A DNA stretch of 64,000 nt, taken from Perna viridis. Lineage: Eukaryota. Location of the stretch: assembly GCA_037379345.1 (NCBI GenBank), contig CM074519.1, positions 22,718,103 to 22,782,102 of the forward strand, written 5' to 3'. The notes below the pieces were generated by a model. That model ran no database searches, was not told the DNA's origin, and saw nothing but the letters and a program-made list of their open reading frames with translations. Shown piece by piece: positions 1,753 through 62,731 of the stretch (its first letter is position 1; every line of letters starts with the position of its first letter). A program made the translations under genes and the position numbers.

Positions 1753-4115
1753 CACTCTGAATGGTAAAATATATGTTTTCGATTTTCAAGCGTTTTCCTA
1801 AATAGGCTACAGAAAAATCTGTTTTTTTAAATGAAATATGCAGAAAACTTGGATATTGTAAAATGATGATAACTGTCTGGCAAAAATTGAATAACCATTC
1901 GTTCACGTACATCTTTAATCACAAGTTTAAAGTGGAAGAACATTTGTTAATGTATCTTTGAATATTTCAATGGTTCTATTTGTATGCAGTTTCATACACA
2001 TATACATTAACCAAATTCTGAACTGTTTTACCGTATGTTTCATTAATTCCCATTTTATTATTTACCCCTTATCTCTAAAAATACCATGCAAAATTGTCCA
2101 CATGGGGTGGAAGGGGGCATTGGTCCTGGAAGTTTTCTTTTACATTTGTGGATAAGCATCATGGAAGAAGATTTTACTGGTACCCTGTGAATTTACTCAG
2201 TATAACCCATAGTGTATTGGGAACCATTTTTCATTTTTTAGACAGCCAATATTTAATGACTTGTCGCATTACTAGTGGCTTGAAATGAAGTTTAACATCA
2301 ACGAAATATGACGACTGTTGGTATGTATTGAGAGAATGTACATTTGTGTTTTGTTCAACAATAGACACAACATAATACGACAACCGGAACAAAATATGAA
2401 TAAACAGGAAAATTATCCATGGTAAACCTTATCTGGAATAAATCATAAACTAAATGGGTTTTATTTTCTTGTAAATGTAAATCTAGTGTATTTATTTTTA
2501 GTGTTGTAGAATCTGCATTATATATATTTAAATGGTATTAAACTGAATAGCTTTTATTTATCTACGTACAAGATACTTGTCCAATTTTATAAATAAAAAG
2601 TGGGAAATATAACCGAAATTATTCATTAATATCTTTCGCTTATGAACTATAATATTATTATTGAAATACATGCTTGGTGTCAGCTTCCAGATCTGTTGAA
2701 ACAGCTGACTGCTTGACTGAGATTTTAATATTCTTACATTCTGATATCTCGCTATGTATTATGGTCGTGAAAATATATGAAAAAGATCCATACAAAAGTT
2801 TGTCCTTTTTTGCAGAAAATAAAATTCCTTTGGAAGAATTTTATCTATATAGAACCTTCTATGTACAATTTTTAGAAGTCTGCAATGTAGGTATCATCAG
2901 TTATACTAAAACCTGGAATTCGTCTAGTATTCACATAAATGAGATGTATATCAATTTAAATACATAGAAATAAATGAAAAAAAAAATAAAAATAAATAAA
3001 TAAAAATGTATAAATATTTATTTATAAAAAGAAATTCACAAAATTTGTTTTACTGCTGAAATTGTACATTACAATAGGGAATATGCATATTAAAATTAAT
3101 TAGTTCTGTTGGAATTAAGGTAAATAATTTTAACTGGTTACTGTGGAAACAATCAATAATTGCCCAGGAGATTAAACCTAATAAATCAAGTACAGATATG
3201 TTAACTGGAAAATATGATGTAAGGTAATCATGAAATACGACACTACTTTATAAAGATTATTCCATCTAATTTATGCTAAAACTATCAATTTTATTGCATT
3301 AAGGAAACTATTTTTGTTCGGTAAAACGACAAACTGTAAATACACTATTTGTGTATTGGACAGACCTATCATAGCACTTCTTCATATATGTTGAAAGAGT
3401 TATCAAGGGAACCAAGGTTATAGCGGAAATCAAAAGAATGTAATCCAGGGACAAAGACCAAACATGGAAAACAGACATACACAACAAAGAACATTAAATA
3501 ATTAAAATCATACATACAAAGTAACAAAAGTAAATGAGCAACTTGGACTTTGAAAATTGTTTTTGGCCAGTCGGAGTACACGACAATAAGATAATAAAAT
3601 AATCTGTATTCATTGGAGTTTATTCTAAATTTTGGAATATCAATAGGTGACGCTGCTGGTTCTAAAATATTGTTTCCACTTTATATTTCTTTGTCTTAGC
3701 AAATGCCTTGTTAGTGTGTAAAGTTTCATTAATTCTGATCAACTACTATTTGGACGCATCTATAGGCTTTTGCATGGTTTTCGCCGAGATTGGGTGTTAA
3801 AAGCTTAAACAAGGATGATTTTGCAAACAATTTTTATTTATCGAACGAGATTGGTTCTCGTTATCTAGAAGATTACACGTTCTGTAAAGAGTTAAAGGAG
3901 CAAGCATTCAGAGAATATAACATCGCTATACAAAGTTCCCTGCCGCAGAAAAATATGTGTAAAAAAGAAAAAAAAATTCCAAATGTGATAACAAAACACA
4001 ATCCATAAAAGTGAGTCTGCATTAATTTTCGAAACTCACAGACCAATACTCATTAAAACATAAAAGGACTGAAACAAAACACTTTATCTGTAACTGGTCA
4101 TGATTAAGCAAGTTA

Positions 4116-5311: not shown

Positions 5312-6207
5312 TTACCTGTATGTAAAATCTTTATGACCACTCCAAAGCATAAATGTTTTCTTCTCTGAACTGATGTTGATAGTTTTTGGCAAAGACAACC
5401 CTATACCATGTGGACGGATTTGTAACCCAGTTGAGTCTTGAAGAGATTTGAACACATTAAAATTCTCCAATATGTTACGTGACTCCGGGGGAAATAAAAG
5501 GAAAATAGTACCAGCATTGTCTTGACAAAAGTCAACAAGAAAACATAATTTGTTTCCTACAACTGGAGCCGGAAGACGTAGCTCATGCTCAAAAACTGTT
5601 ATCTTCAAACCTGAACCGAATCGGAACACGTTATAAAGATGCTCATTGTAAACAGGGGCTCCTTTACATTCTAGTATATCGTTAACCTTATTGCCCGGAA
5701 TTAAGTCAGTTCTTAAGTCGGTCATGGAAAGTATTGATGAACCCGATTTACTAAATCGAATCCATTCCGGAAGTGTATCATATAGGCGTTCAAATACGGT
5801 AGGTAAAAACGAAGCTATCATTGCATGAACATCTCGAGGAGTAATTGCAAAAAGGAAACAATGATCAGATCGCTTATTTTCAATTTTGATGTCAATGTGT
5901 TCAGAATATTTCAATGCCCCAAAGGCTAAGTCGATGCCAGATGCGGTATTAGTAACTTCTAATCCTGATATTGAAACAGGTATTGAAACGAAGCCTATCT
6001 CAACAAATACTACGCCGTAGGTGTAGTATATACTATTATTAGATGATAGTTTAAACCAATCAGATGTTGAAGAGAGGAGAATACTGCGGTTTTGACCAGT
6101 ATGTCCACATGATACGACCTCCAGCAATGCACATCCTTTCGGTAATAATCTTCTGGCAATTTTATGTACTTCAAAGATGTTCTGTTTACTACTGGATGTC
6201 CCATCGC
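5312..6207 (-). CDS. Gene A terminal exon: ~298-aa C-terminal domain of unknown family (GDGTSSSKQNIFEVHKIARRLLPKGC...KDFTYR*)
   Basis: Longest ORF in the window (300 aa). AG acceptor at 6209-6208 in phase 1, matching the upstream EGF exon; stop at 5312-5314. Confidence 0.85.
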
Positions 6208-6604
6208 CTATCAAAACAAGAGAGTATTAGTAATCAAATACATTCATTCAGCAGTATTAAGTAAATGGTGCCGAAAGATTAGATAACACTGATTCATATT
6301 GGTAAAAAAAAAAACATTTGGTTGAAAATGCAATGGAACGGTAAGTTACTGCTGCTTTTGCAAATCAATTCTCTTTTTTGTTCAAACATGTTTAATGTAA
6401 TACGTTAAATTTTGTTCCAAATAAAAAGCCTTTTCGACTACTTTTTCAATTTCAATTGTCTTAACTTTGGGGGCTTATATGGATTTCAAATTTGTTGTTT
6501 TCATTTAAGGTATTTTTTCGACTTCGCTTTGTTTTGTGTTTGTCTTTCCTTTTCTTTTTTTTTTTGTTTTGTTTTGTTTTTGTTTTATTTTGTTTTGTGT
6601 ATTA

Positions 6605-7986: not shown

Positions 7987-8582
7987 TTACATATGGAGAG
8001 AAAAGTTGACAACTCTGAATGAAAAGTCATCACGTTTGTTGTAAAGTTTGATACATTGTCTTTCTTTGCCATCGACCTCTAAGTATTGGTCAAGATATGA
8101 GGCTGACCTCACATTGTCTGTAGTATCCTTTACTCCAAGTTTTGTTAGTTAGATGGGATGTATCAAATCCCCGAAACTAGGATTGTTCAAAGATAATTTG
8201 TCATTGATATAGCGAAAACTGAGATTAAAAGAATTAGCTAAACGATATTCTTTCTTTCTGATCAGATCAGCTATAAAGTCATCCACAAAAGAGTGGAGGA
8301 ATTGGTCAGCAAGCAGAATACTTGCAGTTTGTTGAAAAACGCGTACACCACATTGGACAAATCTGTTGTCGATAAAAAAAATCCAGCATTTTGGAGACAT
8401 CTTCAACTGTATATTTGGAATATGATTTCGAATTATTTGTTACAAAGTATGAGGAATCTCTACCAGGAACTATATATTTGTATCTAGGTGTACCATCTTT
8501 TTTTTTTCGAGAAACAACAGTGTATAATGTTTTTATGTCGGGATTTAACTGAGTATGTGGAATAGTAGTATACAGTGTTGAA
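7987..8582 (-). pseudogene. Decayed Penelope-like (PLE) reverse transcriptase fragment
   Basis: Translates to STLYTTIPH...FIDNxFVQCGxRVFQQT[GIPMG motif deleted]..LLADxFLHS...SFRYIND(for YIDD)...KLYNKRDDFSFRVVNF, with frameshifts. Confidence 0.88.
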
Positions 8583-9426
8583 TAGCATAACATATGATTA
8601 GTCCAAGTAAATTTCTGTATTACCTGTGATATCAATTTATTATCTACCCCAGTCACGTTCAGAAACATATAGAATGTGTTTATATGCCTTTGTAATAGTA
8701 CAGGGACAATATACAGGAAGTAATGTAAAGTATACAAACACTTTAACTCAGGTTGAGTGTAACACTTAATGGTCTCAGAACTTTTTACTACACATATAAG
8801 TTGGAAAAATGTAACTGTTCAAACAACAAGAAAAAGAAACGCTCAATTATCAAAGGTGAAGCTTAACGCATAAGGTAAATCCCCGAGGTAAAACAATACT
8901 TTACACCATAATGTATACAAAATGGCAAAAATGCGTAAATAATTGAATATAAAAAATGCATGGATATAAATATGATGAAAAAATGTTCATGACAATATAT
9001 ATGTAAGAGATCAAATAAACGACGGTAGCAAATATAGGTCATGGTAGTTTACTTCGACATTTTTAGTGTGGTAATTGGACATATCACTTTTTGACGTAAA
9101 AATCACGTGACTATTCAAGCTATAAAACTGCATTTTAAAGCATATTTTGTCAAAACTAGGTATTTGTAGCAGGAATGAATTATTTTTTTTTTGAAAACAA
9201 AAGTAAGTTTTATATATACTCAAATTTTGACTGGCAGTTTAAGTTTATTCTCAAATGTTATTATTAATTAGAGTTAATGTATGTTTTCATATCAAAGGGG
9301 AACATAGTGTATACTTTTATGAGATATGTCCACATTTATTTCAGTTGCACACCATCTAGGCGAATCCTGAACAGAAATTTAAAAAAACTAATGATTACTG
9401 AATGATAATCTTTGGAAAAAACATAC

Positions 9427-14911: not shown

Positions 14912-15686
14912 CTGTAAACGTCAATTGTAATACTTACATGAGGCAAGACAATTATTACAGGTACCACTTTCAATAAAAATTTAGATAGACTTCTGAGTAA
15001 TTTTGACAGTTCAGGTAGAATTCTGTCCTAATAATATGCCCTAATAAAATAAATATAACCTGTCTTTTTTTAATCACTGAACACCCTTATGATCGTAAAG
15101 AAAACATGTACAATGTAAAACGATTTTTTTTCCCACTGTATGCCTTTAACTTATAACGGTGCTAAAATGCTTTTATATGCTACTAAAATATAGCCTGATG
15201 ATTTGAAAAGGCACATTAAAAATAGGTTCTTACGTTGTTCATTTACTGTGTTATTTCATTATTCAATTTGGTCATTTATCTACGTTAATTGTGTGAAAGG
15301 ATTGTCATAGTTTTACCCCCTCTTTAGTCTACCAAGGATATACTAATTCATGAATATCTCTGCGGGCTTTTTTCTGAAAGCAGACGACTCTTACCCTACC
15401 AGTGCAGCTGGTCCATGCTCCCAATTTCAGTGGCGATAAGGTTGCTCATTTTACTTTTGTTTCTTTGTACCACTTATATTCTTATTTTTTTTTGTTCAGG
15501 TTCTTAAATATGTGCGTCTATTTTCGTAGTCGAATCTTTATTTTTTTACCATATTCTTTTGATTATCGCTTCGAATTTTGTTCTTTGTTATTCTTCCTTT
15601 TCTTTAATATCCAACTTTTTTTTAAACACTGTGTATTAAAAAGTAGATACAATATTTTAAAATATGATATCATAATGTACAAATAC

Positions 15687-15803
15687 CTGTATCTAGCGCA
15701 TCGGCTCCAACCAAAAACTCCACATTTTGCCGTGTAGTATTGTGAGGTATAAACTGTTTTTGTGGTGCTTTCGTTGTAACTGCAGTCTTTTTGTAAGGAT
15801 ATT
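15687..15803 (-). CDS. Gene A exon: first half of EMI-like domain, copy 1 (ISLQKDCSYNESTTKTVYTSQYYTAKCGVFGWSRCARYR)
   Basis: 117 bp, TTTCAG acceptor and GTATTT donor, phase 2-2; CGxFGWxRCxRYR motif. The frame differs from the ORF-track frame. Confidence 0.8.
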
Positions 15804-17543
15804 CTGAAATAAAAAGTATAATAATAATAATGCAGCTTCTCATTTGATAATTTGTAGACTGCAAATATTAATTACTTTAAAATAATTTTTGTAACCATCT
15901 TTAGGTTCATCACCCAGAAGTGTTTGAAGTCAAGATACATAATATTTGAGAATAGTACAGTTTATTTTAGGATATAAAATGAAAGTTGATCGATAAATAA
16001 GTTCTCCTGTCCGTGCGAGACTCGTACGAGTAGTCAATGACGTTAAAGCCCTCCCCCCAAGTGGTAAATAAATTCTGATTTTTATTTCTGTAAATAAAAC
16101 GATGATTTGATACATCCATCATTTTTGTATTCAATCAAAAATATGGCGTATTTCGAAACATAATTTTTGTCCGTACTTAATCTAATCTTCGATTCAAATG
16201 TTTACCTTCGTAAAAAAGTTGGCTAAAGAGATAAGAAAATTTCAATTGATAGCTGTGGTGGATTTTCTCATTTCATCTACTGTTACTGAGAGAACACTTG
16301 CACTTTCCCGTAAAAATTGGAATAATTAAATAAAGAGTTAGTGAACAATGATATCTTACATATACTGTTTGAAAAAAAATATTTTATAATTATAATTTAT
16401 CGAGATTAAGAGATGATTGAATATTTCTTGCAGTTTGTTTATATCAAGTTACTGTGTTGAAGTAACCTGTATTTAACAACTGGACGTGCAGTATTGCGTT
16501 TTTCGAGTGTATGATTTTGATTTATAACTGTAAACGAAAGCTTTTATATGCTACTGAAATATAACCTCACGATTTGAAAGGGCAAATTGAAAATAGTTTC
16601 TTACCATATTCTTCTACTAATGTTGTACGAACAATTTAAGACATGGAAAACATAGATATCATTTTGATAGGAATGGCTGTTGCTTATGTAAACGTTGGTT
16701 TGGAATGAATAGAAATGTCAAAATGTAGGAAGCACGTTACAATCAGCCTTGTATCAATAGTGTCTTGAGACAGACTAGGAAAGAAATAAAATTCGGACAA
16801 TTCAAAAAGCTGTATTGTTAACAAGTTTATGAAATGACTGGTTCTTGAATTGTGTGACTTACATGTAGTTCCGGATGATTTTAATTTTCAACACACTTTC
16901 CCATCATGTACTTCCTCTCTTTTTGTAATCACTGAACACCCTTATCATCGTAAAGAAAACAGTTTTTATATGTACAATGTAAAACGATTTCTTTTTTTTT
17001 CGACTGTATCCCTTTAACTTATAACGTTGCTAAAATGCTTTTATATGCTACTAAAATATAGCCTGATGATTTTAAAGGACACATTAAAAATAGGTTCTTA
17101 CGTTGTTCTTTTACTGTGTTATTTCATTATTCAACTTAGTCATTTATCTACGTTAATTGTGCGGAAGAATTGTCATAGTTTTACCCCCTCTTTAGTCTAC
17201 TAAGGACATGATAATTCATGAGCATCTCTGCGCGTTTTTTCTGAAAGCAGACGACTCTTACCCTACCAGTGCAGCTGGTCCATGCTCCCAATTGCAGTGG
17301 CGATGAGTTTGCTCATTTTACTTTTGTTTATTTGTACCGCTTATTTTTTTGTCAGGTTCTTTGATATGTGTGTCTATTTTCGTAGTCGAATCTTTAATTT
17401 TTTTACCATATTCTTTTGATTATCGCTTCGAATTTTGTTCTTTGTTATTCTTCCTTTTCTTTAATATCCAACTTTTTTTTAAACACTGTGTATTACAAAG
17501 TCGATACAATATTTTAGAATATGATATCAAAATATACAAATAC

Positions 17544-17660
17544 CTGTATCTACCGCATCGGCTCCAACCAAAAACTCCACATTTTGCCGTGTAGTATTGA
17601 GAGGTATAAACTTTTTTTGTGGTGCCTTCGTTGTAACTGTAGTCTTTTTGTAAGGATATT
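17544..17660 (-). CDS. Gene A exon: EMI-like first half, duplicate copy 2 (ISLQKDYSYNEGTTKKVYTSQYYTAKCGVFGWSRCGRYR)
   Basis: Near-identical to 15687-15803 with splice sites and frame intact; first Cys changed to Tyr. Whether it is used is unknown. Confidence 0.55.
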
Positions 17661-20619
17661 CTGAAATAAAAAATATGATGATAATAATGCAGCTTCTCAT
17701 TTGATAATTTGTAGACTGCAAATATTAATTACTTTAAAATAATTTTTTGTAACCATCTTCATGTTCATCACCCAGATGTGTTTGAAGTCAAGGTACAGAA
17801 TATTTTATGGTAGTACAGTTTATTTTATGATATAAAATGAAAGTTGATCGATAAATATGTTCTCCTGTCCGTGCGAGAGTCGGAAGAGCAGTCAAGGACG
17901 TTAAAGCCCCCCTCCCCCCTTAGTGGTAAATAAGTTCTGATATTTATTTCTGTAAATAAAACGATGATTTGATACATCCATCATTTTTGTATTCAATCAA
18001 AAGTATGGCGTATTTCGAAACATGATAAGACTAAAAATTTGTTTGTCCGTACTTAATCAAATCTTCGATTCAAACAAATATTTACCTTTGTAAAAAAGAT
18101 GGCTAAAGCGATAAGAAAATTTCAATTGATAGCTGTGGAAGATTTTCCCATTTCACTTACTGTTCCTGAGAGAACACTTGCACTTTCCCGTAAAAATTGG
18201 AATAATTAAATAAAGAGTTAGTGAACAATGATATCTTACATATACTGTTTGAAAAAAAATCTTTTATTATTATAAATTATCGAGATTAAGAGATGATTGA
18301 ATATTTCTTGCAGTTTGTTTATATCAAGTTACTGTGTTGACGTAACCTGTATTTAACAACTGGACGTGCAGTATTGCGTTTTTCGAGTGTATGATTTTGA
18401 TTTATAACTGTAAACGAAAGCTTTTATATGCTACTGAAATACAACCTCACGATTTGAAAGGGCAAATTGAAAATAGTTTCTTACCATATTCTTCTTCTGA
18501 ATTATTTCATTATACAACATGGTCATATAACTACGTTAATTGTGTGAAAGGATTGTCATAGTTTTATCCCCTCGTTTGTGTACCAAGGACATGATATTTA
18601 ATGAGTATCTCGTCGGGCTTTTTTTAGAAAGCAGATGAATCTTACCCTACCGGTGCAGCTGGACCATGTTCCCAATTTTAGTGGAGTCCTGGTTGATCAT
18701 TGATTTTTGTTTATGTGTACCAGTTATGTTGGTTTTGTCAGGTTCTTTCATTTGTTATGTTTGTCTGTTTTCGTAATCGAATCTTTATTTTTGTACATAT
18801 TCTTTTGATTATTGCTTCGAATTGTTTGCTTGTTTTGTTCTTCTCTGTCTTTAATATTCAACTTGTTTTAACACTGTGTATTAAATTGTGGATAATAAAG
18901 CAGCGCGACATATAATAATTTGCAGACTACAATGATTAATTTTCTTGAAATTCTTTTATTCATCTATATGTCCAACACTCAAAAATGTTTAAGTGTCAAG
19001 GTTAAGATTGTTTAAAAGTAAAAGAAAAAGGTGATCGATGAATTAATTTCGATATACATTGTTGTTAATAAAACGACGATATTCTGTATTCATTTTTTGA
19101 TATTCAATAAAAAATATTTTAACTTGAAACTTGATAAGACTACAGATCTGGTTGTCCGCACTTAATCTAAGCTTTGATTCAAATGTTTACATTTCTTTAA
19201 AAAGATGGGTTTTTTTACGAAAGCGACAAGAACATTCAAAATATTAGCCGAGGAAGATTCTTTATTATTTCACCCACTGGATGAGATAAAACTTGTGTGC
19301 TTTCACGTAAAAAATGGAACAATTAGATAAGAAGTCAGTGAACGATAATCGAGATGATTTTTTACTTCTTGCAGTTTGTTTTTATCAAGAGATTGTGTTG
19401 AGGTGACCTGTATTTTACAACTTGTCATGACGTATCACTGACCACACTGATACGTTGTGATCAGCTGTTTGAAAAAGTTATTTCAGTTAACGATAAAATC
19501 GAAGAACAAACTCGAACTGTAAATTGGATTTGCTTTGCGTGATTTTAATTTTTGGAGTATTTGGTTTTTTTTTTTCGAATAAAACAAAACCTTTAGGAAT
19601 TCGTTGTTAAATGTAATGTCACCTTTCCCCTCGGGTTCTTATGACACCATATTTAGGTATTAATTTGACCAATAAAATAAATCTATATTTATACCGTCAG
19701 CTTGGGCGCCGATCATAAAATTGATTAAAATATAACATGTGGCACCACGGAATTAAATTCTTGAAGGATTTTAATTAGATGTATTTCCTACCAAGAATAA
19801 GGTATAGGATTAGATATATTCATGAAAGATGAATATAGCTTGTTGTTGTTATTTATTTCATTTTTATTCAACTGAATTAAATCAAAACATCACTCCGGAT
19901 AAATTTAAATAGCACTTACATTGCTTCGAAATAAACCGTACATTTTCACGCATGTCATGGTTCATTGATCGTCAATGTTAAGTTTTTAGTGGATTCTTTG
20001 TTGAGCCTGTTTCTCCTGCCTAGTCTTTGTCCCTGGATGGCATTCTTTTGATTTTTGCTAGAATCTTGGTTCCATCGAATACTCTTACTTTATTACTTTA
20101 TTACTTTATTTTTTTCCTGAAATCTTGTTTGAAATGAGGACGTTTATTCCTATGGAGTATTTTTTGGCATATGTTTTGTTAAAGTGCAAAATTTGAACAC
20201 AGCTAAAATTTAACAAGTTTTTCCGTCTCAAAGTGCGAAAAAGTCTTACGCAAAAAGGAGAAAGTACGTTTTAGGTGGAAATCGGCCCTGATACAGTTTT
20301 TCTTAATTTTAGCTGAAAATAGTCTTAAGGTATGCAATTTATAGAAATACATTGCTTTTTACATTTGCCTTCTTTTTTTGCGGAAGAAATAAGTTTTGTC
20401 AAATGACGTTACGTCACAATTCAAAATATAACACTACTTTTGTCGCTAGTTCTAAATACGTGTAATAAATAAATGGATTAAATGTTATTCATTTTATTCA
20501 ATATACGAATAAAAAAAGTACTGGTATCTACTGTCCAGCTATTTAAGTAAAATTCTCCATTCACTTTTCGATCACACTGCTATCACTATCATTTTCATTA
20601 ACGGGTTCCAGAATTACTG

Positions 20620-31123: not shown

Positions 31124-33586
31124 CATTTTTTAAGGAAAGAATCATAGAATTATCACAAAGAAGTTGCCGTTTGCGTATTTGGATGGTCAATGGTAAATAT
31201 TTTGTAAGCCCACTTAATCTGCCTGGTGTGTTTTATGAAACTTCGGGAAATCATTATAATGAATATGTAATACCATTGTGCTACTCTTGTTTAAATCTGC
31301 TATCTTGATTTTGTTGTTTTAGTTTTCATAGCATAAACTTGATTTTCTGTGAACTCATTTGAATGGTTGGATATATCTATTCTAAATCTTATCATTAACT
31401 GTTCAAAAAGATTTTTTCGTGAAAGGATGTTTTTTTTTCAATATTTTTAGAAATTATTTACCTGAACAAAAGTGAGCTTTTTATTTATCACTCTATATTA
31501 TTTATTCACTTCAATGAAGTAAACTGCAAACTTCATACAATGCTTTATGTATCTTTTTCACACTTATAATGTGAATACGTTTTGGGTGTGTATTAGATTA
31601 AAATAATAGAAATCAGTTGTTATAGGGTTGTGTGTGTAATTCTAGTTTTGTTCCAAATACAGTTTTGAACAAAAACATATCTTAAAATAAAGATGGAATA
31701 AGATCGGTTCATTGCAACAAAAATGCCAGTAAACCAACGTTGGCAAGAGACATTGGGCATAGATATACCAAAGCCTTGTAGGTCGACTTTAAATACATTG
31801 GAATAGAAATACATGTTTAGACAAACATAAAACCGAATCTGTATGCGGATATTCAATAAACCACTGGTAAGCTCAGTAAAATGGTAAAATATAACTAAAG
31901 CATAATTTCTAGTTGTTCCAAGTGTAACAGCCATTCATCAAAATCTGCATTTTTTATTGAGTTTGTATTCATATGTACCTCTGAAATTTCGTAAACAGCA
32001 TGACAACTAATGGAAAGATTCTTTAATATTTATGTTACGTTCTTATTTCTTGAAATTGTGAACAGGTTTTATTTGTCAATAGTTATTAAAATAAACTGTA
32101 AACCATATAAATGTACAATCATTCAAAACCTTGAATTTTGCATTTCACTACTCACGGTCTTCAATGTTTCTGCAATTACGAACAAGCGCTGTACTTATAT
32201 TTTGACAAACAGGCAGAAATATGTTTTAAAAACTTCACGTATGATCTACAAAATATTCCTCTGGGGACGGGGTTATGCTGGCTCATTTTTTCAGTAAATA
32301 TATGCTAATCTGTTTTCTATACTAGATCATATGTGATATGCTATTTTGGCATTATTTAGCAAATAGTTCATATTGCAATATATGGACCGAAGCGTAGCTG
32401 AGTTCTTATGAATTTGTTGGGGCGACAAACCGGTCCATATATTGCCATTTGACCCGAAGTTTTTAAAACATATTTCTGCCTGTTGGCTAAAATATAATTA
32501 GAGCGCTTATTTGCTATATTTTTAAATATAGTATATTCTAGATCATTCGTGTGAAGAAAATTAAGGGAAACATACACAACTTCTTAAATTATGCCGTCAT
32601 TATCTTAACCTGAAAGCATGGCGGTCCATATAATTTCTTCTCGGTCCATATGGCGTTATATGGACCGGCAGTTTTATCTAAAAAAGTAAACAAAAAAATC
32701 GTTAAATTATGATATTTTGGCATTTGTTGGGGGTGAAGCCCCATGTTTGCAACATAAGTATACTATTATCCTTGATTAGGTTAATATTCATATGTTTACT
32801 GCATAGGTTACTGTAATAATATCTTTCGCATGTATATACATAGTAATAGCTCCTAACATAAAAACTAGTTGACCGTGAACTTTATCAAACCAACCCTAAA
32901 GACCTCATTAACTCGACCTCGGGAGCCCTGATTTCTTTGGTGAAAAATCGTTATTTTTATTTGTTATATTTTCTTGAAAAGAAGCGAAATATCACATTCT
33001 ATAGCTTTTTCAGCTTATTTATAGTAGCTACCACTAAACTGTTTTAAATACGCCATTCCATGATGTACATATATAATCATTTGGTTTATCTAGTCATATT
33101 AAGAATATATTTTGATAATTAGACTCCATTTGTAGATAAATGCAAGCATTCCGGGGATTGAAATCCCTCTTTTGTTTGTAAGTTTTGTAATTCCTGTGCA
33201 CAAATGAAAAGTGGAGATGGTTACCTGAAACACCCCTTTAACCATTTCTGGCAGGATCCCCACTTCTGAAACCGTCCCCGAGGCTTAACGATTGAAATCT
33301 TATAAAGTTTTGGTTTTTTTTTAAACCTGGTGCGTTTCTTAACTTTTATATAATAAATATTATGTTTTCGTTCATCAAGATGATGGCGTAAAATTACAGA
33401 ATATGAATAGGATTGAGTCATTCATTTTGTAATTACATGCCATAAAATGATATCTCAGATTATACTTGTTCTAAAGTGTTTACCTCAGTCGCATAAGGTT
33501 CAGTATTGTTTTTTTTACAATTTGATTTGTATGCATGTTTTGAGCAACTATAATAAAAATGTCATACAGATTAATGATCGTCTTAA

Positions 33587-34107
33587 AGAGTAATCAAGGG
33601 AACCAAGGTTAGAGCGGTAATCAAAAGAATGCAATCCAGGGACAAAGGCCAGACATGGAAAACAGACATACACAATAAAGAACATAAAGTAATTAGGCTT
33701 CTGGAACAGGATTATGTTGCTACAAGATTGAAGTCATCAGTACAGAAGTTTTATGGTCGTCATCATGAACTAGTGGATCGTTATTGTGTATCCATCTGCA
33801 CCATGAAAACTGATTTATTCAACGGGTCATAGTTTTCCTCGTTTGTCTACCCCGGACTTGACTTTCTATGAGCAACTCGGCGGGTGTTTCTAGAAAAGCA
33901 GAGGACGCTTACCCTACCGGTGCACCTGGTCCATGCTCCCAGTTTCTAGTGGAGTCCGAGTTGCTTATTTGCTTTTGTTACTTTGTACGTATGATTTTTA
34001 GTTTCTTTATGTACTTTGTTGTGTATATCTGTTTTCCATGTTGGGTCTTTGACCCTGGAATACGTTCGTTTGATTACCGCTATAACCTTGGTTCCCTTGG
34101 TTACTCT
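33587..34107 (+). mobile_element. PLE 3' fragment with an inverted copy of its own 3' end at the 5' junction
   Basis: 33587-33694 is the reverse complement of ~34000-34107. 33695-33832 encodes LLEQDYVATRLKSSVQKFYGRHHELVDRY..FNGS*. Confidence 0.85.
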
Positions 34108-35343
34108 TAAATAAATAAAGAAAACACATTGACAGCCAAGAATGAAATGGAAGTTTTCGTAGGCAATGTACGCAGAGTACCTCACACAATATATGTTCGG
34201 CACCTTGATACCAAATAGATATCAATCAAATAAAAAGGTAGGCGCTCGACGAAATTAGGTTTCCCATAAAAGGTAAATATCTATTTTATTTGTATTAATG
34301 ATATGTCAAATCCACGAATTCACGAATCAACATAATGTTTTATTTTTTTAATTTTTTTTTCTAAACTTCTAAAGTAAAGTATTTTCACTGTGTAGTACTT
34401 AATAAATCGTATATCTAAGGTATTCAACAATGGTGCACTTTTGTTTTATGTTGAATTATCATATCAGTAAATAAATACGTTACAATGCCGAAGATAAAGT
34501 GATCAGTTAATGAAGAATGGGATTTCGTCCATCCGGTTAAAAATATGTATTTAGTACATTTTAAATTAAATTATCATTTTTTTGCCTGTTAATTCCATTG
34601 AACAGTATTTACAATTTTATCATTTTGGTGTAAACTGATTGTTAAAAAAAGCTTTATTGTGCAAAACTGTTTAATGTGCATGTAAACATTGCATAATCTG
34701 GGTGAACACAAGTTGTTTATTATCTCAAGGACGCCAAGCTACTTCCTTCTTCAAATCTTCAAATAGAAAAATAAGTATAGCATATGCACCTTTGTCAGTC
34801 TAGAAAAAAATCTCAGCATAATTTTTCTCTTGATATATTTTCCCATAAGATAAAATCATGAATTTCTCACTAGAAAGAAGGGTTAATATTGAACATAAAA
34901 AACTGTCAATGTTTTCATTCTTTGAGACATGCCGCTGTTGATAAATATGTCGACGTCGATATTTCAACGATTATCATACATTTGCAGTTTTATACGCTTT
35001 TCCAAAATATTTGTATTTCACAATATAAACATATTTGTGTGTTTTCATATTCCCAATGTTATTTGTGTTAAAGTTGGTTTTCTTTATCTTTTCCCCCCAG
35101 AACAACAAAAAAGCATTTGTTCTCTGTTTTGACAAAGTTTTACGTGGACATGCATTTGCGTCCAGAAAAAAAAACGAAGCAAAAACAAACAAACAAACAC
35201 ACAAACAAACAACACCACCATAGAATAATAAAAACAAATTTCATGAACGACAATCAATATGCAGTAGTTATGTTTCTCTTTTGTAGCTTAGTTTCGCCCT
35301 AAGCTCATTTTGGTTTCAACCGTATAGATTGTTAAAGGCTTTT

Positions 35344-35839
35344 TGATGCATGTCACAACAAATAAGTTTACGTTATCTTCCCTGTATCAATTTGATCCGA
35401 TGAAGCAGTGTAGCGAATAGAGTCGTCACATTCTGAGACGTTGTATAATATTGATTTGTTGTGACATGCATCATTAATTTGATCCTCTATACTACTTAAT
35501 AACACCTAGATGAACTGTCCCGTACTACCATACATCGTGTACTAAGCTAGATTAATCCTACGAGGAGGAATAACCCGGCCAGCTAAAGTTACATTTTATA
35601 TAGCCTAGCTGGCCGAGTGGTCTAGGGCGCTGGACTTTGTGCAGGCGGTGTAGCCATAGATGTCACAGCGGAACGAGTTCGAGTCCCGCGGAGGGAACAA
35701 CCAAAAATTTGCATCACAAATTTGACAGTTCTAACATCGTTGGGAATTTTTCAGACCTTTCTATACGTTTACATATCTTCCCTGTATCAATTTGATCCGA
35801 TGGAGCAGTATAGCGAATAGAGTCGTCACATTCTGAGAC

Positions 35840-35872
<33 letters not shown>
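35344..35872 (+). mobile_element. tRNA-derived (Pol III) SINE-like element in a permuted, partial-tandem arrangement
   Basis: A box TGGCCGAGTGG at 35610-35620 and B box GTTCGAGTC at 35677-35685; 69-bp direct repeats at 35374-35442 and 35774-35842; (TA)n tail. Confidence 0.75.
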
Positions 35873-35876
<4 letters not shown>

Positions 35877-36595
35877 AAAATTACTGAACACGATGTTTGC
35901 TTAAGTTATTAAAGCTTCCAATGTTAGAACTTTAGCATATCTTAACAATTTCGCCCTAAATATCCTACATATTTCAGTCATGTATCGTATAATCATTTTG
36001 AGCATTTTGTAGTTTTTTGTAGTTGTATTTTCAAGAGTTTATTAAAAAAAAAAGAACAATTTGATAGATATGTCCCAAGATACACAATTTTTTTATCCAA
36101 TCAGAAGTCGTGTTACATCTGAAATTAAATATTTATAAACAATGGATAAATACTCCAATAAAAGATTTTTTGAAATATAAATAATGGTGTTACAAATTTA
36201 TGTGCATGCAATCGAATATTTATTTGACAAGATATTGAACATTCCTCTAATCAGGAAGTGTTACTTAGATAGAACTAAACAGAGCATTAGATTTATCACA
36301 TTTAGTGTTTGTAAAGATATTGAGTTATCTGTTTTGTTATCTTCAAACTAGAGACACAAAAAGTACGAAAAAAGATGCATGACAAAAAGTAAACATGACA
36401 TATTATGACAAGGGAAAGATAGTAAACGCGAAATTAAAGCGGGTAAATATTCATAATATTAAAGATAAGGTTAGGTTATGATTGACCGTTATCTATGAAG
36501 AGGTCATCCTTTAGCTGATAAAATATTGATTTCACAAATTTAATTTAAAAAAGATACATATATTATTACATAGCATTAGCACATCGATTCCTGTT

Positions 36596-36836
36596 TTATG
36601 AGCAACTCGGCGGGTGTTTCTAGAAAAGCAGAGGACGCTTACCCTACTGGTGCATCTGGTCCATGCTCCCAATTTTTAGTGGAGTCCGAGTTTCTCATTT
36701 GCTTTTGTTATTTTGTATGTATGATTTTAGTTACTTTATGTATTCTGTTGTGTATGGCTGTTTTCCATGTCTGGTCTTTGTCCCTGAATTGCATTCTTTT
36801 GATTACCGCTATAGCCTTGGTTCCCTTGATTACTCT
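36596..36836 (+). mobile_element. PLE 3' UTR copy (5'-truncated)
   Basis: High identity to 33866-34107. Shorter or more diverged copies lie at ~3395-3550(-), ~15330-15575, ~17200-17430, ~18560-18820, ~49780-49895(-) and ~55500-55690. Confidence 0.85.
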
Positions 36837-36842
36837 TTTTAT

Positions 36843-49716: not shown

Positions 49717-50300
49717 TTCTGACCTTATTTTTTAAGAGCATGGTAGCAAAAAAAACACAGGTATTGTTTGTCATTGTCTAAGAGTAGTCAAGGGAACCAA
49801 GGTTATAGCGGTAATCAGACGAATGTAGTCCAGAGACAAAGACCACACATGGAAAACAGACATACACAACAAAGAACATAAAGTAACTAAAATCAAACAA
49901 TTGATCAGTTAATCTAAATTATAGGTTTTCTGATGTCATACACATTTTAGATTTGTTTAATTTTACAAACCTTGCAGATGTACCACATTTAGGTGCAACA
50001 TGTGCGAGTAATCACATTTCTTAAGCGTTTTGAGTATGAACATGCAGCATTTTTTGGGTTATTATAATAATGGTTTGGCTCAGGTCCAAATTAATCATGT
50101 GTCAAAGTTGAGGTAGAATCCAATCCTTTGTGTGGTTAATTCTGCATAATAACAATTTGACTTAATGTATCAGTCTGAAACAAAGCAGGGTCTATTTTAC
50201 ATGTGTGTGTATATATATTAATAGCATAGAAATAACAATCAATCACTCAGTCAATCAGTCAACCAGTGAACTAAAACATGACCTGTTTATTTCTTTTCAG

Positions 50301-54147: not shown

Positions 54148-55077
54148 CTGAAACCGTAAAATATTGTTTATAGTAAAACAAAATACGGAAACAACATTAC
54201 CACTTACATACCCGTCCACATAAAATGCAGACACTGCCAATAGAAAAATGAATCCTGGTGTAAAAAAACCCACCAAACAAACAGTGCTTTTGTCAGTCTC
54301 TATGTGTTATATTTTTGCGTACCGATAATCGTATCTGTATTCAATCTGTACTTTTGATAAAAAAAGTACATTTTTCTCCCACTAAAATCAACGAAATCAA
54401 ACAAAATCAAGAACCATAACTCTTTCAAAGTGCAAATTTCATGTACAATCTAAATAATTTTTATCTCAAAAGCGCAACAACCAAATGAAAAACTTAGACT
54501 AATCATGTGAACAGAAACTGTTTCTGAAGATGAAATTAAACTGAATTCAGTGTATTTTTTTACATGCAGAGATCATCTTTTGACTGATTTTTATAAAGAC
54601 TACTACTTAATTAGTTGGTATGATAATTGCAATACATGTATGTATTGGATGAGAATTATTTTTTCCTGGAAACTATAAAAAGAAATAAATGATTCTTAAT
54701 TCATAACTAATAAGAAAGCATGCATCGACAAATAAGTTGTAGGGAAATAGCACACGATAATGCACGGAGAAGACATATATATTAATAAATTTTCATTTTT
54801 TTAATAATGATAACACAAATAAAGCTGATATTTATATTATTGAAGCAAAACTTAATAGATTCATAACGAATTAAGGTGGTAGACCTAAGGTAAGGGAACT
54901 AACTCTTGAAATCAGTGATATGTCTGTATTATATTCAGTTTCACCAAAGCCTATCAAGCTTTCATTTGAAACAGCGTGAAATCAGTCCAAGTTACTTTGA
55001 CGCATACATGTGATAGGGTTGTGCCCCATTTCCTAGGTATACCGCTTTAAATTGATATTCTATATTAAACATCTTAC

Positions 55078-55254
55078 TTAAATTTCTGATTTTCTTAGTT
55101 ATAGCTTGTTGCTTTTCATTGCTATCCAGAACTACTAATCTTCCATTATGATCTTCACATGTCTTTTTAGCATGACTCCATGGCAGTCTATTTGCGGACA
55201 ACTGTATACACGTTCTCAGACCCATCATGTACGAGTAACAAGTAGACGGACAGT
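55078..55254 (-). CDS. Gene C exon: first half of CTLD2 (DCPSTCYSYMMGLRTCIQLSANRLPWSHAKKTCEDHNGRLVVLDSNEKQ...)
   Basis: 177 bp, phase 1-1, CTCAG acceptor and GTAAGA donor; WxxAxxxC-xxxGxL motif. Confidence 0.9.
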
Positions 55255-56197
55255 CTGAGATTAATAAAGATAAAAATGATGTAATATAATGATAAAAAAG
55301 CATCTTCAAAATCTACAAAGATGCACACCGCATACAATTTAGCTTTTTCACAGTATAAACAGCTAAAACAGGTCATCAAGCTAGACTTATCCTACTAATA
55401 TAAATATCGCGTGCGAAATGAACTCAGAAACTTAACTACTCGTGAACGTCGATGTATCTCTCTGCACCATGATAACCTATGTGTTCATAGTGTCATAATT
55501 TTCCTTTACTCCTTTTTCGTCTACCCTGGACTTGAATTTTCGCATGCAACTCGTTGGGTGTTTCAAGAAAAACAGAGGATGCTTACCATACCGGGACATG
55601 TACACCTGGTCCATGCTCTCAGTTTCAAATAGAGTCCCTGGAATGCATTCTTTTGATTTCATTGGAATCCTTATTCCCTTCATTACTTGTTTACAGTGTT
55701 CACACAATTTCATTTTTTTTTTTTTGAAAAATTAAAAAGATAAATACAGGTCAATTAAATAATTTATTCAAAATCAATATCAATTAAAACGACACCATTT
55801 CTTGTTATCTGGGAAATATTTGTATTTTATGTTATTTAACTCGATGAATCATATATTTAAATAGACAATTGGTATTAAGTGAAAGTCTCTGTAAGAATCA
55901 GACAGTGGGTAAACATGGTATGATTAAACCTACCATCAGAATCAAGAAAAAAAGACAAGATTTTCCATATCATTTTGGTAAATTGATTTATATTTTCACT
56001 GAAATGCACTGAAAATGAACATTTCAAGGACAGATAACTCTGTAAAAATCTCACATTTTTCTAACATTCTATTTTTTGATTCAGATATCAAATAATGGTC
56101 TTACATTGTTAGTTCGGTGGGTTATTGACATGCATGTTTCTGTTTTTTCCAAATATTATCTGATTCTGACAAAGACTTACACTTATGATATACATAC

Positions 56198-56428
56198 TTT
56201 GTGTCGGTTTCTCGCAAATGAATCGCAGAGAACTGTTGCAATTCCTATGGAACCACTGAAAAGATCGACTCTGACGAACGAAAGCACAATTTAATTTCGT
56301 CCCATTAACACCAAATGAGGATTTAGTAAGTGTAGTAGTCCAATTATTGTAATGAAGTTCTGCTCCGTTTACCCATTCAAATTGTCCATCAGTTCTGACA
56401 GCGCGTAAACCTATCCACCAATCGAACC
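56198..56428 (-). CDS. Gene C exon: second half of CTLD1 (FDWWIGLRA...FEWVNG...CAFV...WFHRNC...FICEK)
   Basis: 231 bp, phase 1-1, WIGL and FICE motifs. Confidence 0.92.
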
Positions 56429-57747
56429 CTATGATCACGAAAAAAAAATACGTAATAATATTAGTACACCAAGTATGAAGTCATAAAATATTGCCTAAAG
56501 TCTATTTATACGGCATAAATTTACGGTACCACTGCTGGTGAACCTAAGGTCCCCGAGGGTATCATTAACCCAGTAGTCAGGTTTGTCTGACCCCGAATAA
56601 TATCATATTGTATCTATTCCATTTCTGGAATCTTGCAGTTTTCCAAATTTTAGAATACGTAAGACACCGAGGCTTCATTCCTTGCAGTGTATATGGTAGA
56701 ACCTCTCGGTGATGGATTTGCCTTCCTCTTTCGATAGTTTTGGTTATGAGTACTTCTTGTATACAACTAACATTTTGATTATGATCTTCCTACATATTTG
56801 ATTTTGATGCTGCTGATGATATAAAACTTGTATTTTTTGTATTATACAATGTGTCACACAGATTTTTAAGACAGTAAATTATGTAATTCAGCAAGACTAT
56901 ACTAATTAACTGATTAAATCAAACAAAATATATGGAACTGAGAAAAGCTGTCGAAGACAAATAAAAAAAAAAAACTTTCATTCATAATAAATTTAAGACC
57001 ACGAACTTCCTACGTATTTGATTCCGACGTTACCGATTTGAGGTTACTTCTTGAAATCATTGTTTACGGATGTTTGCTATAATCATACGGTTCGTATTTT
57101 TTTGTACTTACAGTACTAAAATGTGTTACTCGAATCGTTTGTTTTCTTTTTAGTTTTCTGTCGTTATGCATATGTTTCATCGTTTTACTTTTTGGGATGA
57201 TTCTGTAACTATTTATTCATTGAGTTTTCTCATAGTACTTCATTCATTGCATGAAACGTTTCCAGTAAATCTTGTATATCTATGAATCAAAAATCTGTCA
57301 CAAACGCAACTACTGTTTAATTAAAGTGCTAAATTAAAAATGCACTCAAGTGTCTGTCCCAGTAAGCACCAGGCAGTGGGTGAAACATGGTATGAAAAAC
57401 CCCATCATTTTGATATTGAATTTGACTATTTGGACAATCAGAATCAAGGAAACCGGACAAGATTTTCTATGTCATGCTGGACCATTGAGTTACAATTTCA
57501 TTGAAATGCCTTGAAAATAAACATTTCAAGAATAGATAACTCTTTCGAAAGCCTTATTTGTCTAAGATTTTATAGAAAAACTGCTGAGCACAACCAGTGA
57601 TGTAGAGATCAAATAATGGTATTTTCAAATTGAGAAAGTATATCCTTGAGTGATTTTACATTGCCAGATCGTAGGGGTTTTGACATGCATATTTCTAATT
57701 TTTCCTATTTTCCCTGATTCTTACAAAAACGTAAACTTAGTTATTAC

Positions 57748-61385: not shown

Positions 61386-62399
61386 CTGAAATAAAACAAA
61401 TAAATATCGACAATAAGGATTTAGAAAATCAAATAATACTAATATCTTCGCACTTTCATCACGTAATCCCTTTTCATATTAATTTGTAGAAGAAAGAATT
61501 TACGTACGATTGGTTTACTGAGCATTTACAAACACACATTAAAAAGATGAAAATCGAAAAAAAAAAGAAAACAAACAACAAAAACAGATAAAAACAGATT
61601 GAAAAAAACTAAAAAGCTAGTCTAATTGTAAATTACGATTAATATTAATTGAATTCCATTATGCAGTTTAAGAGAAGTTGTAGAACAGATAATTATCTCC
61701 CTTTTCTCGATCATTGGAAATACCAACATTGTTTTGCATAGGGAACCCTTGAACAAATCATTCGGATGGATAAACAAAATAGAAGGTACACAATAGCATC
61801 AGATAATAAAGAATTTGAGAAAAACTAAAACAATTTAATTCAATGGTCTTCCAGATTAGAAGTTGTCACGGATGAACTGACGGATAGACGGACATGCAGC
61901 ATGCAGTATCTATCACCAGCATTTCAGGAAGTAGTTTAAAATCATGTATATACCAGAAATTATAAAATAACTAAAATACCATAGTGAAATATTGGCTGGC
62001 AGTGATATGACCGTAACAAAACTAACATAAATTTAACAATTTTAGGGCAAGACAAGAATACACAAACAACATCATGGGTGCATTGAGCCTGTAGTTTGCT
62101 TAACTATTGCATGCGATCTGGTATATCTCAAACTACATTTTGCGATTGAAGATTGCATTTACAATGGATAATTTACGATAATAATAACAGTAAAAAAATT
62201 GGGTCATGTGTGTATTAAACCTGTAATCTGTTTAACTGTAGCAGCATGCGATTTGGTATTATTTAAACTGCATTTTTCGATTTAGGATTACATTTACAGT
62301 GGACTTATGTCCATTATACATAAAAAAAAACCAATTGTATGTTTTGTCTATTTTTTTCTAAAATAATGTATATAGCTATCAAATAAATCAAGGTATTAC

Positions 62400-62522
62400 C
62401 TTTACAATTTTTCAAATCTGTAAGAAGTATCAGACCATGTTCACATTTGCAACGATACGATCCTGGAATGTTCTGACATATATTGCTACAATTCCCGTTC
62501 TGTTCCAAACATTCGTCAATAT
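62400..62522 (-). CDS. Gene C exon: cbEGF ([41 protein letters not shown])
   Basis: 123 bp, phase 1-1, TTCAG acceptor and GTAATA donor. Confidence 0.92.
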
Positions 62523-62731
62523 CTGAATAATTACAGAATTTTGCATTTGACCATTTGTAAAAATAAAAAAAAATAAAATAAAAGGGAAATATCTGGACAT
62601 ACTGGTATATAGAGATGCAGTGCATACATCATTAACAATTATGAATTAGTGTAGTCAGGCTTCAAGTGGTACATAAACATGTAATACCTAGGTTGATATA
62701 ACTTTATGCTTCAAACTTCAAACATACCAAC

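Follow-up and report, generated by a model that had tools for sequence, protein, structure and literature searches.

A tRNA-Leu-headed, non-coding repeat family of Perna viridis with the copy anatomy of Penelope-like elements and a candidate Neptune-like helper

How does a tRNA-like head come to lie in the middle of an inserted repeat, rather than at its beginning as in an ordinary SINE? This question is raised by an insertion at positions 35344-35876 of a 64,000-nucleotide stretch of Perna viridis DNA (contig CM074519.1 of assembly GCA_037379345.1), hereafter the window. An earlier note on this DNA had described the insertion as a circularly permuted Pol III element, copied from a circular or concatemeric RNA, possibly by the machinery of the Penelope-like elements (PLEs) abundant in the window. 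We followed up these claims at the locus itself and across the 723-Mb AT-rich assembly of the species.

Read along the forward strand, the insertion opens at its 5' junction with 20 bp that repeat unit positions 13-32 in inverted orientation (35344-35363, - strand), forming a perfect inverted pair with 35454-35473 (E 2e-4 against the window). All further features of the unit lie on the + strand. First comes a 5' redundant part (35362-35442), a second lap with C-type subfamily alleles that encloses hairpin 1 (35383-35398); it is followed by an internal start signal 2 (35436-35485), comprised of AGAC, an AT-rich spacer and a TGC-ATCA..TGAT-CC hairpin, and by a likely relic (35485-35518), a stretch resembling in its letters the 5' UTR and ATG of the PLE family C discussed below (TCTATCC..ATGAACTGT; alignment p ~0.01-0.03). 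The unit end (35573-35589) is complementary to the head, 35576-35585 being the exact reverse complement of 35606-35615, and is predicted to form an end-closing stem. Next is a joint (35594-35602), in which T4, the putative Pol III stop, directly precedes ATATA, the putative Pol III start. The tRNA-Leu-derived head (35603-35695) contains an A box, TGGCCGAGTGG (35610-35620), and a B box, GTTCGAGTCCC (35677-35687). Beyond it lie an internal T5 (35747-35751), which in this copy lies 145 nt past the head, could act as a Pol III terminator and has to be read through by the template; start signal 1 (35753-35798), with AGAC, a spacer, a TGT-ATCA..TGAT-CC hairpin and T-type alleles; the start signal 2 used by this insertion (35836-35842), AGACGTT and then TA; and finally the (TA)n target microsatellite (35843-35876).

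Several observations of the earlier note thus stand: the inverted left junction and the right end in (TA)n, the two boxes with the complementarity of head and unit end, and a 69-bp block present twice at a spacing of 400 (35374-35442 and 35774-35842, 97% identity), which grows to ~90 bp at 92% identity when gaps are allowed. Others needed amendment. Its count of ~1.17 units of 400 bp was right in that the insertion is a partial tandem, of ~1.2 units, but the family unit is ~408 bp, relative to which the window copy has an 8-nt deletion. The unit does end at a T-run/ATATA joint, as its proposed terminator implied, but the longer T5 at 35747-35751 had been overlooked. The stem behind its self-closing ends is indeed predicted, but the hairpin alone is mildly stable in the window copy (z -1.9; 9 of 200 shuffles equal it). 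A flanking target-site duplication (TSD) was looked for at the window locus and none was found; an 11-bp direct repeat (35292-35302 and 35949-35959) lies 41 and 73 bases outside the insertion and is probably a chance occurrence, not a TSD. Overall, the locus represents 1.2 units, truncated at the 5' side, from a non-coding repeat family with a tRNA-Leu head. Elsewhere the window holds exons that encode C-type lectin domains and an EGF domain of the calcium-binding type (54992-56480 and 62314-62628, both - strand), a local 1.6-kb tandem duplication of 92% identity (15059-18498, with partial copies on to ~19350) and a 304-aa open frame with no Pfam match (5312-6226, - strand).

That the insertion belongs to a dispersed, non-coding and non-autonomous family, and is not a one-off duplication, emerged from the genome. 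A whole-stretch search returned 2,322 candidate copies, with a median divergence of 3.7% from their majority sequence; exact matches numbered 2,795 for an 18-mer of the head and 2,864 for a 22-mer of the tail, with 0 for the reversed controls. The tail motif was absent from metagenome contigs. The head can be aligned to genes for tRNA-Leu(TAG) and tRNA-Leu(CAG) in this assembly, with none of 1,000 shuffles as good; the TAG anticodon is kept in one subfamily, the window copy reads TTG, and ARAGORN called no tRNA in the window. The genome also contains a tandem tRNA gene array at C6 6.66-6.79 Mb, whose 1,087-bp unit holds tRNA-Leu(TAG), and tRNA-Leu(CAG) repeats ~560 bp apart at C8 24.28-24.34 Mb. 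At least 1,708 of the 2,795 heads (at least 61%) are preceded by an upstream unit end, a lower bound because that end had to match exactly, so that the internal head noticed in the window characterizes the family and sets it apart from an ordinary SINE.

The ends of the copies provided the next clue. Counting unit positions (u) from u1, the base after the 3' end of the window copy, we mapped 502 de-duplicated segments from 414 loci, 245 of them with a 3' end in (TA)n and the remaining 257 being inverted or rearranged pieces or ends that lack TA. As many as 217 of the 245 (TA)n-abutting 3' ends fall at two internal AGAC sites, u319-332 (93) and u402-6 (124), contrary to the random permutation that had been expected; among loci picked without the tail motif the same two sites hold 55 + 46 of 119. 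The AGAC sites are ~83 nt apart (u318 and u401), and each is followed by a TGY-ATC..GAT-CC hairpin. The 5' ends are scattered round the unit, giving variable 5' truncation and partial tandems, with a peak at u179-184, where the predicted end-closing stem has its base (20 versus 5.6 expected), and a smaller excess at u161-166, the presumed RNA start (14 versus 6.2 expected). An inverted piece stands on the 5' side in 36 of 85 sampled insertions, and the length of the redundancy, which ends in (TA)n, differs from copy to copy. This anatomy of partial tandems, inverted 5' pieces and two 3' ends is that described for PLEs (PMC8557442), as the earlier note had suspected, and not that of random permutation. 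At the family level, then, we are dealing with a real, non-autonomous, retrozyme-like and tRNA-Leu-headed PLE.

An ordinary LINE-dependent SINE would share the tRNA head and the simple-repeat end, but its expected form is at odds with heads that are mostly internal, two internal 3' ends, frequent inversions and the failure to find a TSD. Likewise, the tandem units have few mutations in common (33 rare variants shared versus 587 unshared), which argues that the arrays are not late DNA duplications. Both explanations are already largely refuted and have very little probability left. On C1, composite clusters of units and PLEs (L061, L063, L067, L071; L031-L034; L057-L060) were themselves copied several times within larger duplicated segments.

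If the family is copied by a PLE, which one? The window itself offers a Naiad, with DKA and CxC motifs and a C-terminal RT, represented by fragments at 8000-8584 (- strand), 1278-1751, 3391-3549, 33583-34108, 36594-36838 and 49779-49899. Its RT piece has 11,434 candidates in the genome, and many of the window fragments are bare 3' ends. Naiads are reported to prefer (TA)n (PMC8557442), which would suit a passenger of this element; but the 3' end of the window Naiad is GATTACTCT and lies away from TA repeats, and the AGAC-hairpin motif was absent in 25 of 25 loci of the one Naiad family examined. Passage on the window Naiad is hence as improbable as the SINE and duplication alternatives, and the suggestion that the PLE abundant in the window is the helper finds no support, given its different 3' end, its lack of a TA target and the absence of a common signal. 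The matching candidates are two autonomous families, B and C, which were found via the neighbours of unit copies and are located elsewhere in the genome, the 64-kb window containing no B or C sequence.

Family C has an 897-aa frame with an RT, a CX4CxxC linker and a GIY-YIG domain at the C-terminus (Pfam scores just below the cut-offs), and the layout of family B is similar; a PDB search with family C gave no match. Copies of the tRNA-headed unit lie directly in front of one family C copy (L181, C9 8583k-8586k), which has the 897-aa open frame. A C-terminal GIY-YIG with a CX2-5CxxC linker is reported as a Neptune feature common to Nematis (PMC8557442), and we term B and C Neptune-like from domain layout alone, Nematis having the same layout. 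Both families show the order hammerhead-like core, AGAC site 1, hairpin, AGAC site 2, hairpin, ATG; pLTRs carrying it include those of family C at L247:1270-1540 and of family B at L292 and L284, and family B has short internal repeats upstream of the core. Copies of B and C end at either AGAC site, in (AT)n, and their sites are ~82-84 nt apart. The candidate cis-signal is thereby present at six sites across three families. Stem position 4 is A-U in the hairpins of the unit and G-C in those of B and C, and the hairpin behind the second site of family C was predicted before it was found in the retrieved sequence. Within the unit the motif, which was defined after the sites had been seen, occurs only at the two mapped ends, and 3 of 20,000 shuffles contain it; a profile built from the B/C sites scores 2.6-3.2 bits on the unit.

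Beyond the signal, the unit has TCTATCC and ATGAACTGT, behind hairpin 2, in common with the start region of family C. Overall, homology of the unit to B and C has modest statistical backing. Local alignments of the unit with B and C are mostly not significant (48-126 of 1,000 shuffles as good); global alignments are matched by 6-56 of 2,000 shuffles (p 0.003-0.03) and are best in register among 34 rotations. The unit was present in 16 of 49 loci picked by Neptune (B/C) and in 1 of 25 picked by Naiad (p 0.007), a co-location that could arise from the shared (TA)n target alone. There are 12 unit-B/C junctions without (TA)n between them, 6 in the same and 6 in opposite orientation, and shared targets with later deletions could likewise yield such fusions. 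A closer third helper was sought with the N-terminus of family C, and only B and C were recovered among the 30 top and 20 divergent of 76 matches. Taken together, these observations make it highly probable that the helper is of the PLE class and, a little less firmly, probable that it is one of the Neptune-like families B and C, whose enzyme likely mobilises the unit in trans.

What RNA would such an enzyme copy? Here the joint between successive units is informative. No more than 119 of 268 contexts (those from one array not being independent) show T5-ATATA, the others having T4, T6, T4 plus A, C or G, or an ATA start. Joint substitutions concentrate on the fifth T (24 of 173), and the ratio of T4, T5 and T6 is alike in both subfamilies (10:12:2 and 13:17:2), whereas the internal T5, unlike the hypervariable joint, stands unaltered in 270 of 300 copies. 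The A and B boxes are intact, and the joint pattern fits the ends expected of a Pol III transcript. In 85 arrays, drawn from 90 of 97 two-joint matches, 53 of 93 pairs of neighbouring joints have the same sequence, where permutation gives 22.8 (0 of 20,000 reaching the observed value); if all pairs had been alike when inserted, neutral decay would by now have left about half of them so. Rare joints recur two or three times inside one array, and rare variants are common to units within insertions 4.3 times more often than between insertions. The repeated copying of one template, anticipated in the earlier note, is thus borne out by the arrays; read most simply, the template is a Pol III monomer that runs from ATATA to U4, is joined a single time and serves for several laps of copying, and we regard repeated copying of one monomer as likely.

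Whether the ends of that monomer are covalently closed is a finer question, on which the genome data are compatible both with a covalent circle and with an end-paired linear RNA. Linkage across the head holds (r 0.59-0.78 for the main markers), for which reason frequent jumps between different RNAs at the head were rejected; a strong stop at the head was also rejected, the excess of ends there being only twofold. The two redundant parts of the window copy carry different subfamily alleles, and the same holds for 6 of 55 scored array pairs; copying therefore does switch between molecules at times, and a single circle cannot explain every insertion. A circle as template seems to us just short of an even chance. 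In the linear version, which our main account includes and which we consider somewhat less probable than the circle, the reverse transcriptase would jump on each lap from the 5' to the 3' end of the same paired-end Pol III monomer, with no circle at all. Such a 5'-triphosphate RNA needs no ligase, its end stem is predicted with a pairing probability near 1, and both the small 5'-end excess at the presumed RNA start and the occasional subfamily switches, that of the window copy included, fit it. Yet most passes cross the joint (95 of 129), the linkage is unbroken at the head, and rare extra bases are repeated exactly lap after lap, which untemplated addition on each lap would not achieve unless the base belongs to the RNA end.

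Transcript data bear on a further alternative. One RNA-seq run yielded 3,008 unit reads in 1,559 million letters, on both strands and at even depth, 67% of them continuing into other sequence, i.e. read-through; no start or end peak of a discrete unit RNA was seen in this library, which may miss short or circular RNA, and back-going unit reads exist of a kind that genomic tandems also produce. In addition, the internal T5, with a predicted hairpin before it, precedes both start signals and should stop most Pol III transcripts ahead of them. Neptune-dependent copying of long read-through transcripts of tandem arrays, from Pol II or leaky Pol III, would make the tRNA part a passenger and leave the unit without RNA ends of its own. 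The resemblance of the RNA-seq to read-through, T4 and T5 both being weak, ambiguous stops, the 97 places with two joints and the reported transcription of PLEs themselves as multimers (PMC11167929) speak for this view. It is nevertheless unlikely: arrays could then only shrink, and the joint variants recur in both subfamilies exactly at the predicted boundary of stop and start.

Searches were also made for a ribozyme. On the window and 19 of the first 30 loci Rfam reported only fold-back miRNA artefacts, a null that is uninformative because Rfam also missed the hammerhead-like motifs of B and C. Hand-made descriptors for hammerhead, HDV-like, twister and pistol ribozymes found nothing canonical on the unit, and judged by these the unit appears to be without a recognisable ribozyme. 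A hammerhead core look-alike without U4 lies at u126-152; the canonical core is lacking in 188 of 189 segments, one having CTGATGA..GAAA. An old unit copy (L005:590-645) has this canonical core just before the joint, either by chance or as the ancestral state. A true retrozyme with a degenerate or unrecognised ribozyme, whose multimers are cut to monomers and closed by RtcB, would read CGAGGA..GAAA before the joint as a hammerhead variant with the TATA/T-run/ATATA hairpin as stem III. The U4-less look-alike, the single canonical segment, the blindness of Rfam to even B and C, and the reported union of a Pol III promoter with a hammerhead in Sm-alpha (PMC6765202) lend it some colour; but neither stem I nor a proper stem II can be drawn, the core is missing in 188 of 189 segments, the HDV-like, twister and pistol descriptors were empty, and the variation lies in the T run and not at the would-be cut site. 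We consider this explanation very improbable, more so than read-through copying.

We therefore favour the account of a non-coding Neptune passenger, a Pol III monomer with joined ends copied on successive laps, to which we assign a probability of about 0.68. Pol III would start at ATATA or ATA directly before the head, sometimes read through the internal T5 and stop at T4 one unit on. The two RNA ends are predicted to pair, with indirect support, and would be joined once per molecule, most likely as the covalent circle weighed above or else by a jump of the reverse transcriptase across the paired ends of a linear RNA. A Neptune protein may then bind the hairpin ~25 nt 3' of AGAC, nick (TA)n and begin reverse transcription inside the RNA. 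As a pattern, the outcome is plain in the copies, which end at either site, run through the head and truncate anywhere on the 5' side, often with an inverted piece. The apparent permutation would follow because initiation is internal, the hairpin 3' of the start being inherited only on the next lap. For a Poseidon PLE two internal start sites were reported in vitro, requiring RNA 3' of the start (PMC11167929), which would explain the permutation seen here. In its boldest form, held tentatively and somewhat below the circle itself, the unit would be the pLTR of a PLE with a tRNA promoter in place of the hammerhead, a ribozyme-free Pol III circular RNA copied by Neptune RT in rolling-circle fashion.

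Parts of this arrangement have precedents. Animal non-LTR retrozymes resemble the unit in being 170-400-nt, non-coding, head-to-tail and pLTR-related, with proposed PLE enzymes and circular RNA intermediates (Cervera and de la Pena 2020, PMC7229834; Li, Clavereau, Pollet 2026, bioRxiv 10.64898/2026.07.22.740005); they are described with a type I hammerhead per unit (PMC7229834), whereas no canonical core was found in the unit here, in which a tRNA-Leu promoter occupies roughly the place of the hammerhead-like motif of B and C. The non-autonomous Chlamys PLEs (MRC1; Craig et al. 2021, PMC8557442) are likewise reported to be non-coding, to have pLTRs, to insert head to tail in multiple copies, to resemble an autonomous family at the 3' end and to target microsatellites, but belong to green algae and the N-terminal-EN clade, a tRNA promoter not being mentioned in the text searched. 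In schistosomes, Sm-alpha and Sj-alpha are reported to have a Pol III promoter inside the tandem unit and to propagate only as tandems; they differ in an active hammerhead, and no helper is named in the text searched (PMC6765202). The TRIMp3 elements Helenus, Ajax and Cassandra (Kojima 2024, PMC10886601) are described as non-autonomous retroelements with a small-RNA promoter in the middle of the terminal repeat, but depend on LTR machinery with PBS, PPT and 4-5-bp TSDs, none of which was seen for the unit. Poseidon PAc of Anolis (Frangieh et al. 2024, PMC11167929) reportedly has two internal RT starts that set its genomic ends and an AT-rich target; it is autonomous and starts in an AC-rich stem-loop without target homology, whereas the start of the unit lies next to TATA, which might base-pair with the (TA)n target. 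Finally, the tRNA-related amphibian repeats PolIII/TAN, OAX and Rana/polIII are described as tandems of 200-360 nt or longer with a tRNA-like part and no matching SINE (PMC10702118), a likeness taken from their descriptions; that source states no connection with PLEs. Short non-autonomous Penelope elements are named, but not detailed, in a survey of butterflies (PMC6685494), and Penelope goes unmentioned in the searched text of a survey of bivalve SINEs (PMC11481361). In the full-text literature, to which subscription papers, supplements, Repbase and Dfam do not belong, we found no description of a ribozyme-free PLE passenger with a tRNA promoter.

How PLEs choose an internal start and how their tandems form are given as open questions in the field (PMC8557442, PMC11167929). 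On these the family offers a minimal PLE substrate of 408 nt, a candidate cis-signal with a compensatory stem change, and a joint that serves as a per-molecule barcode, a record that a single RNA was copied repeatedly. A class numbering thousands of copies escapes any SINE catalogue in which a tRNA head at the 5' end and TSDs are required. Should the RNA prove circular, Pol III would here be the source of a circular RNA that arises with neither ribozyme nor splicing. If our account is true, the family would represent a third SINE-like partnership beside SINE/LINE and TRIMp3/LTR, and it may take in old tRNA-related repeats that form tandems in animals and lack an explanation.
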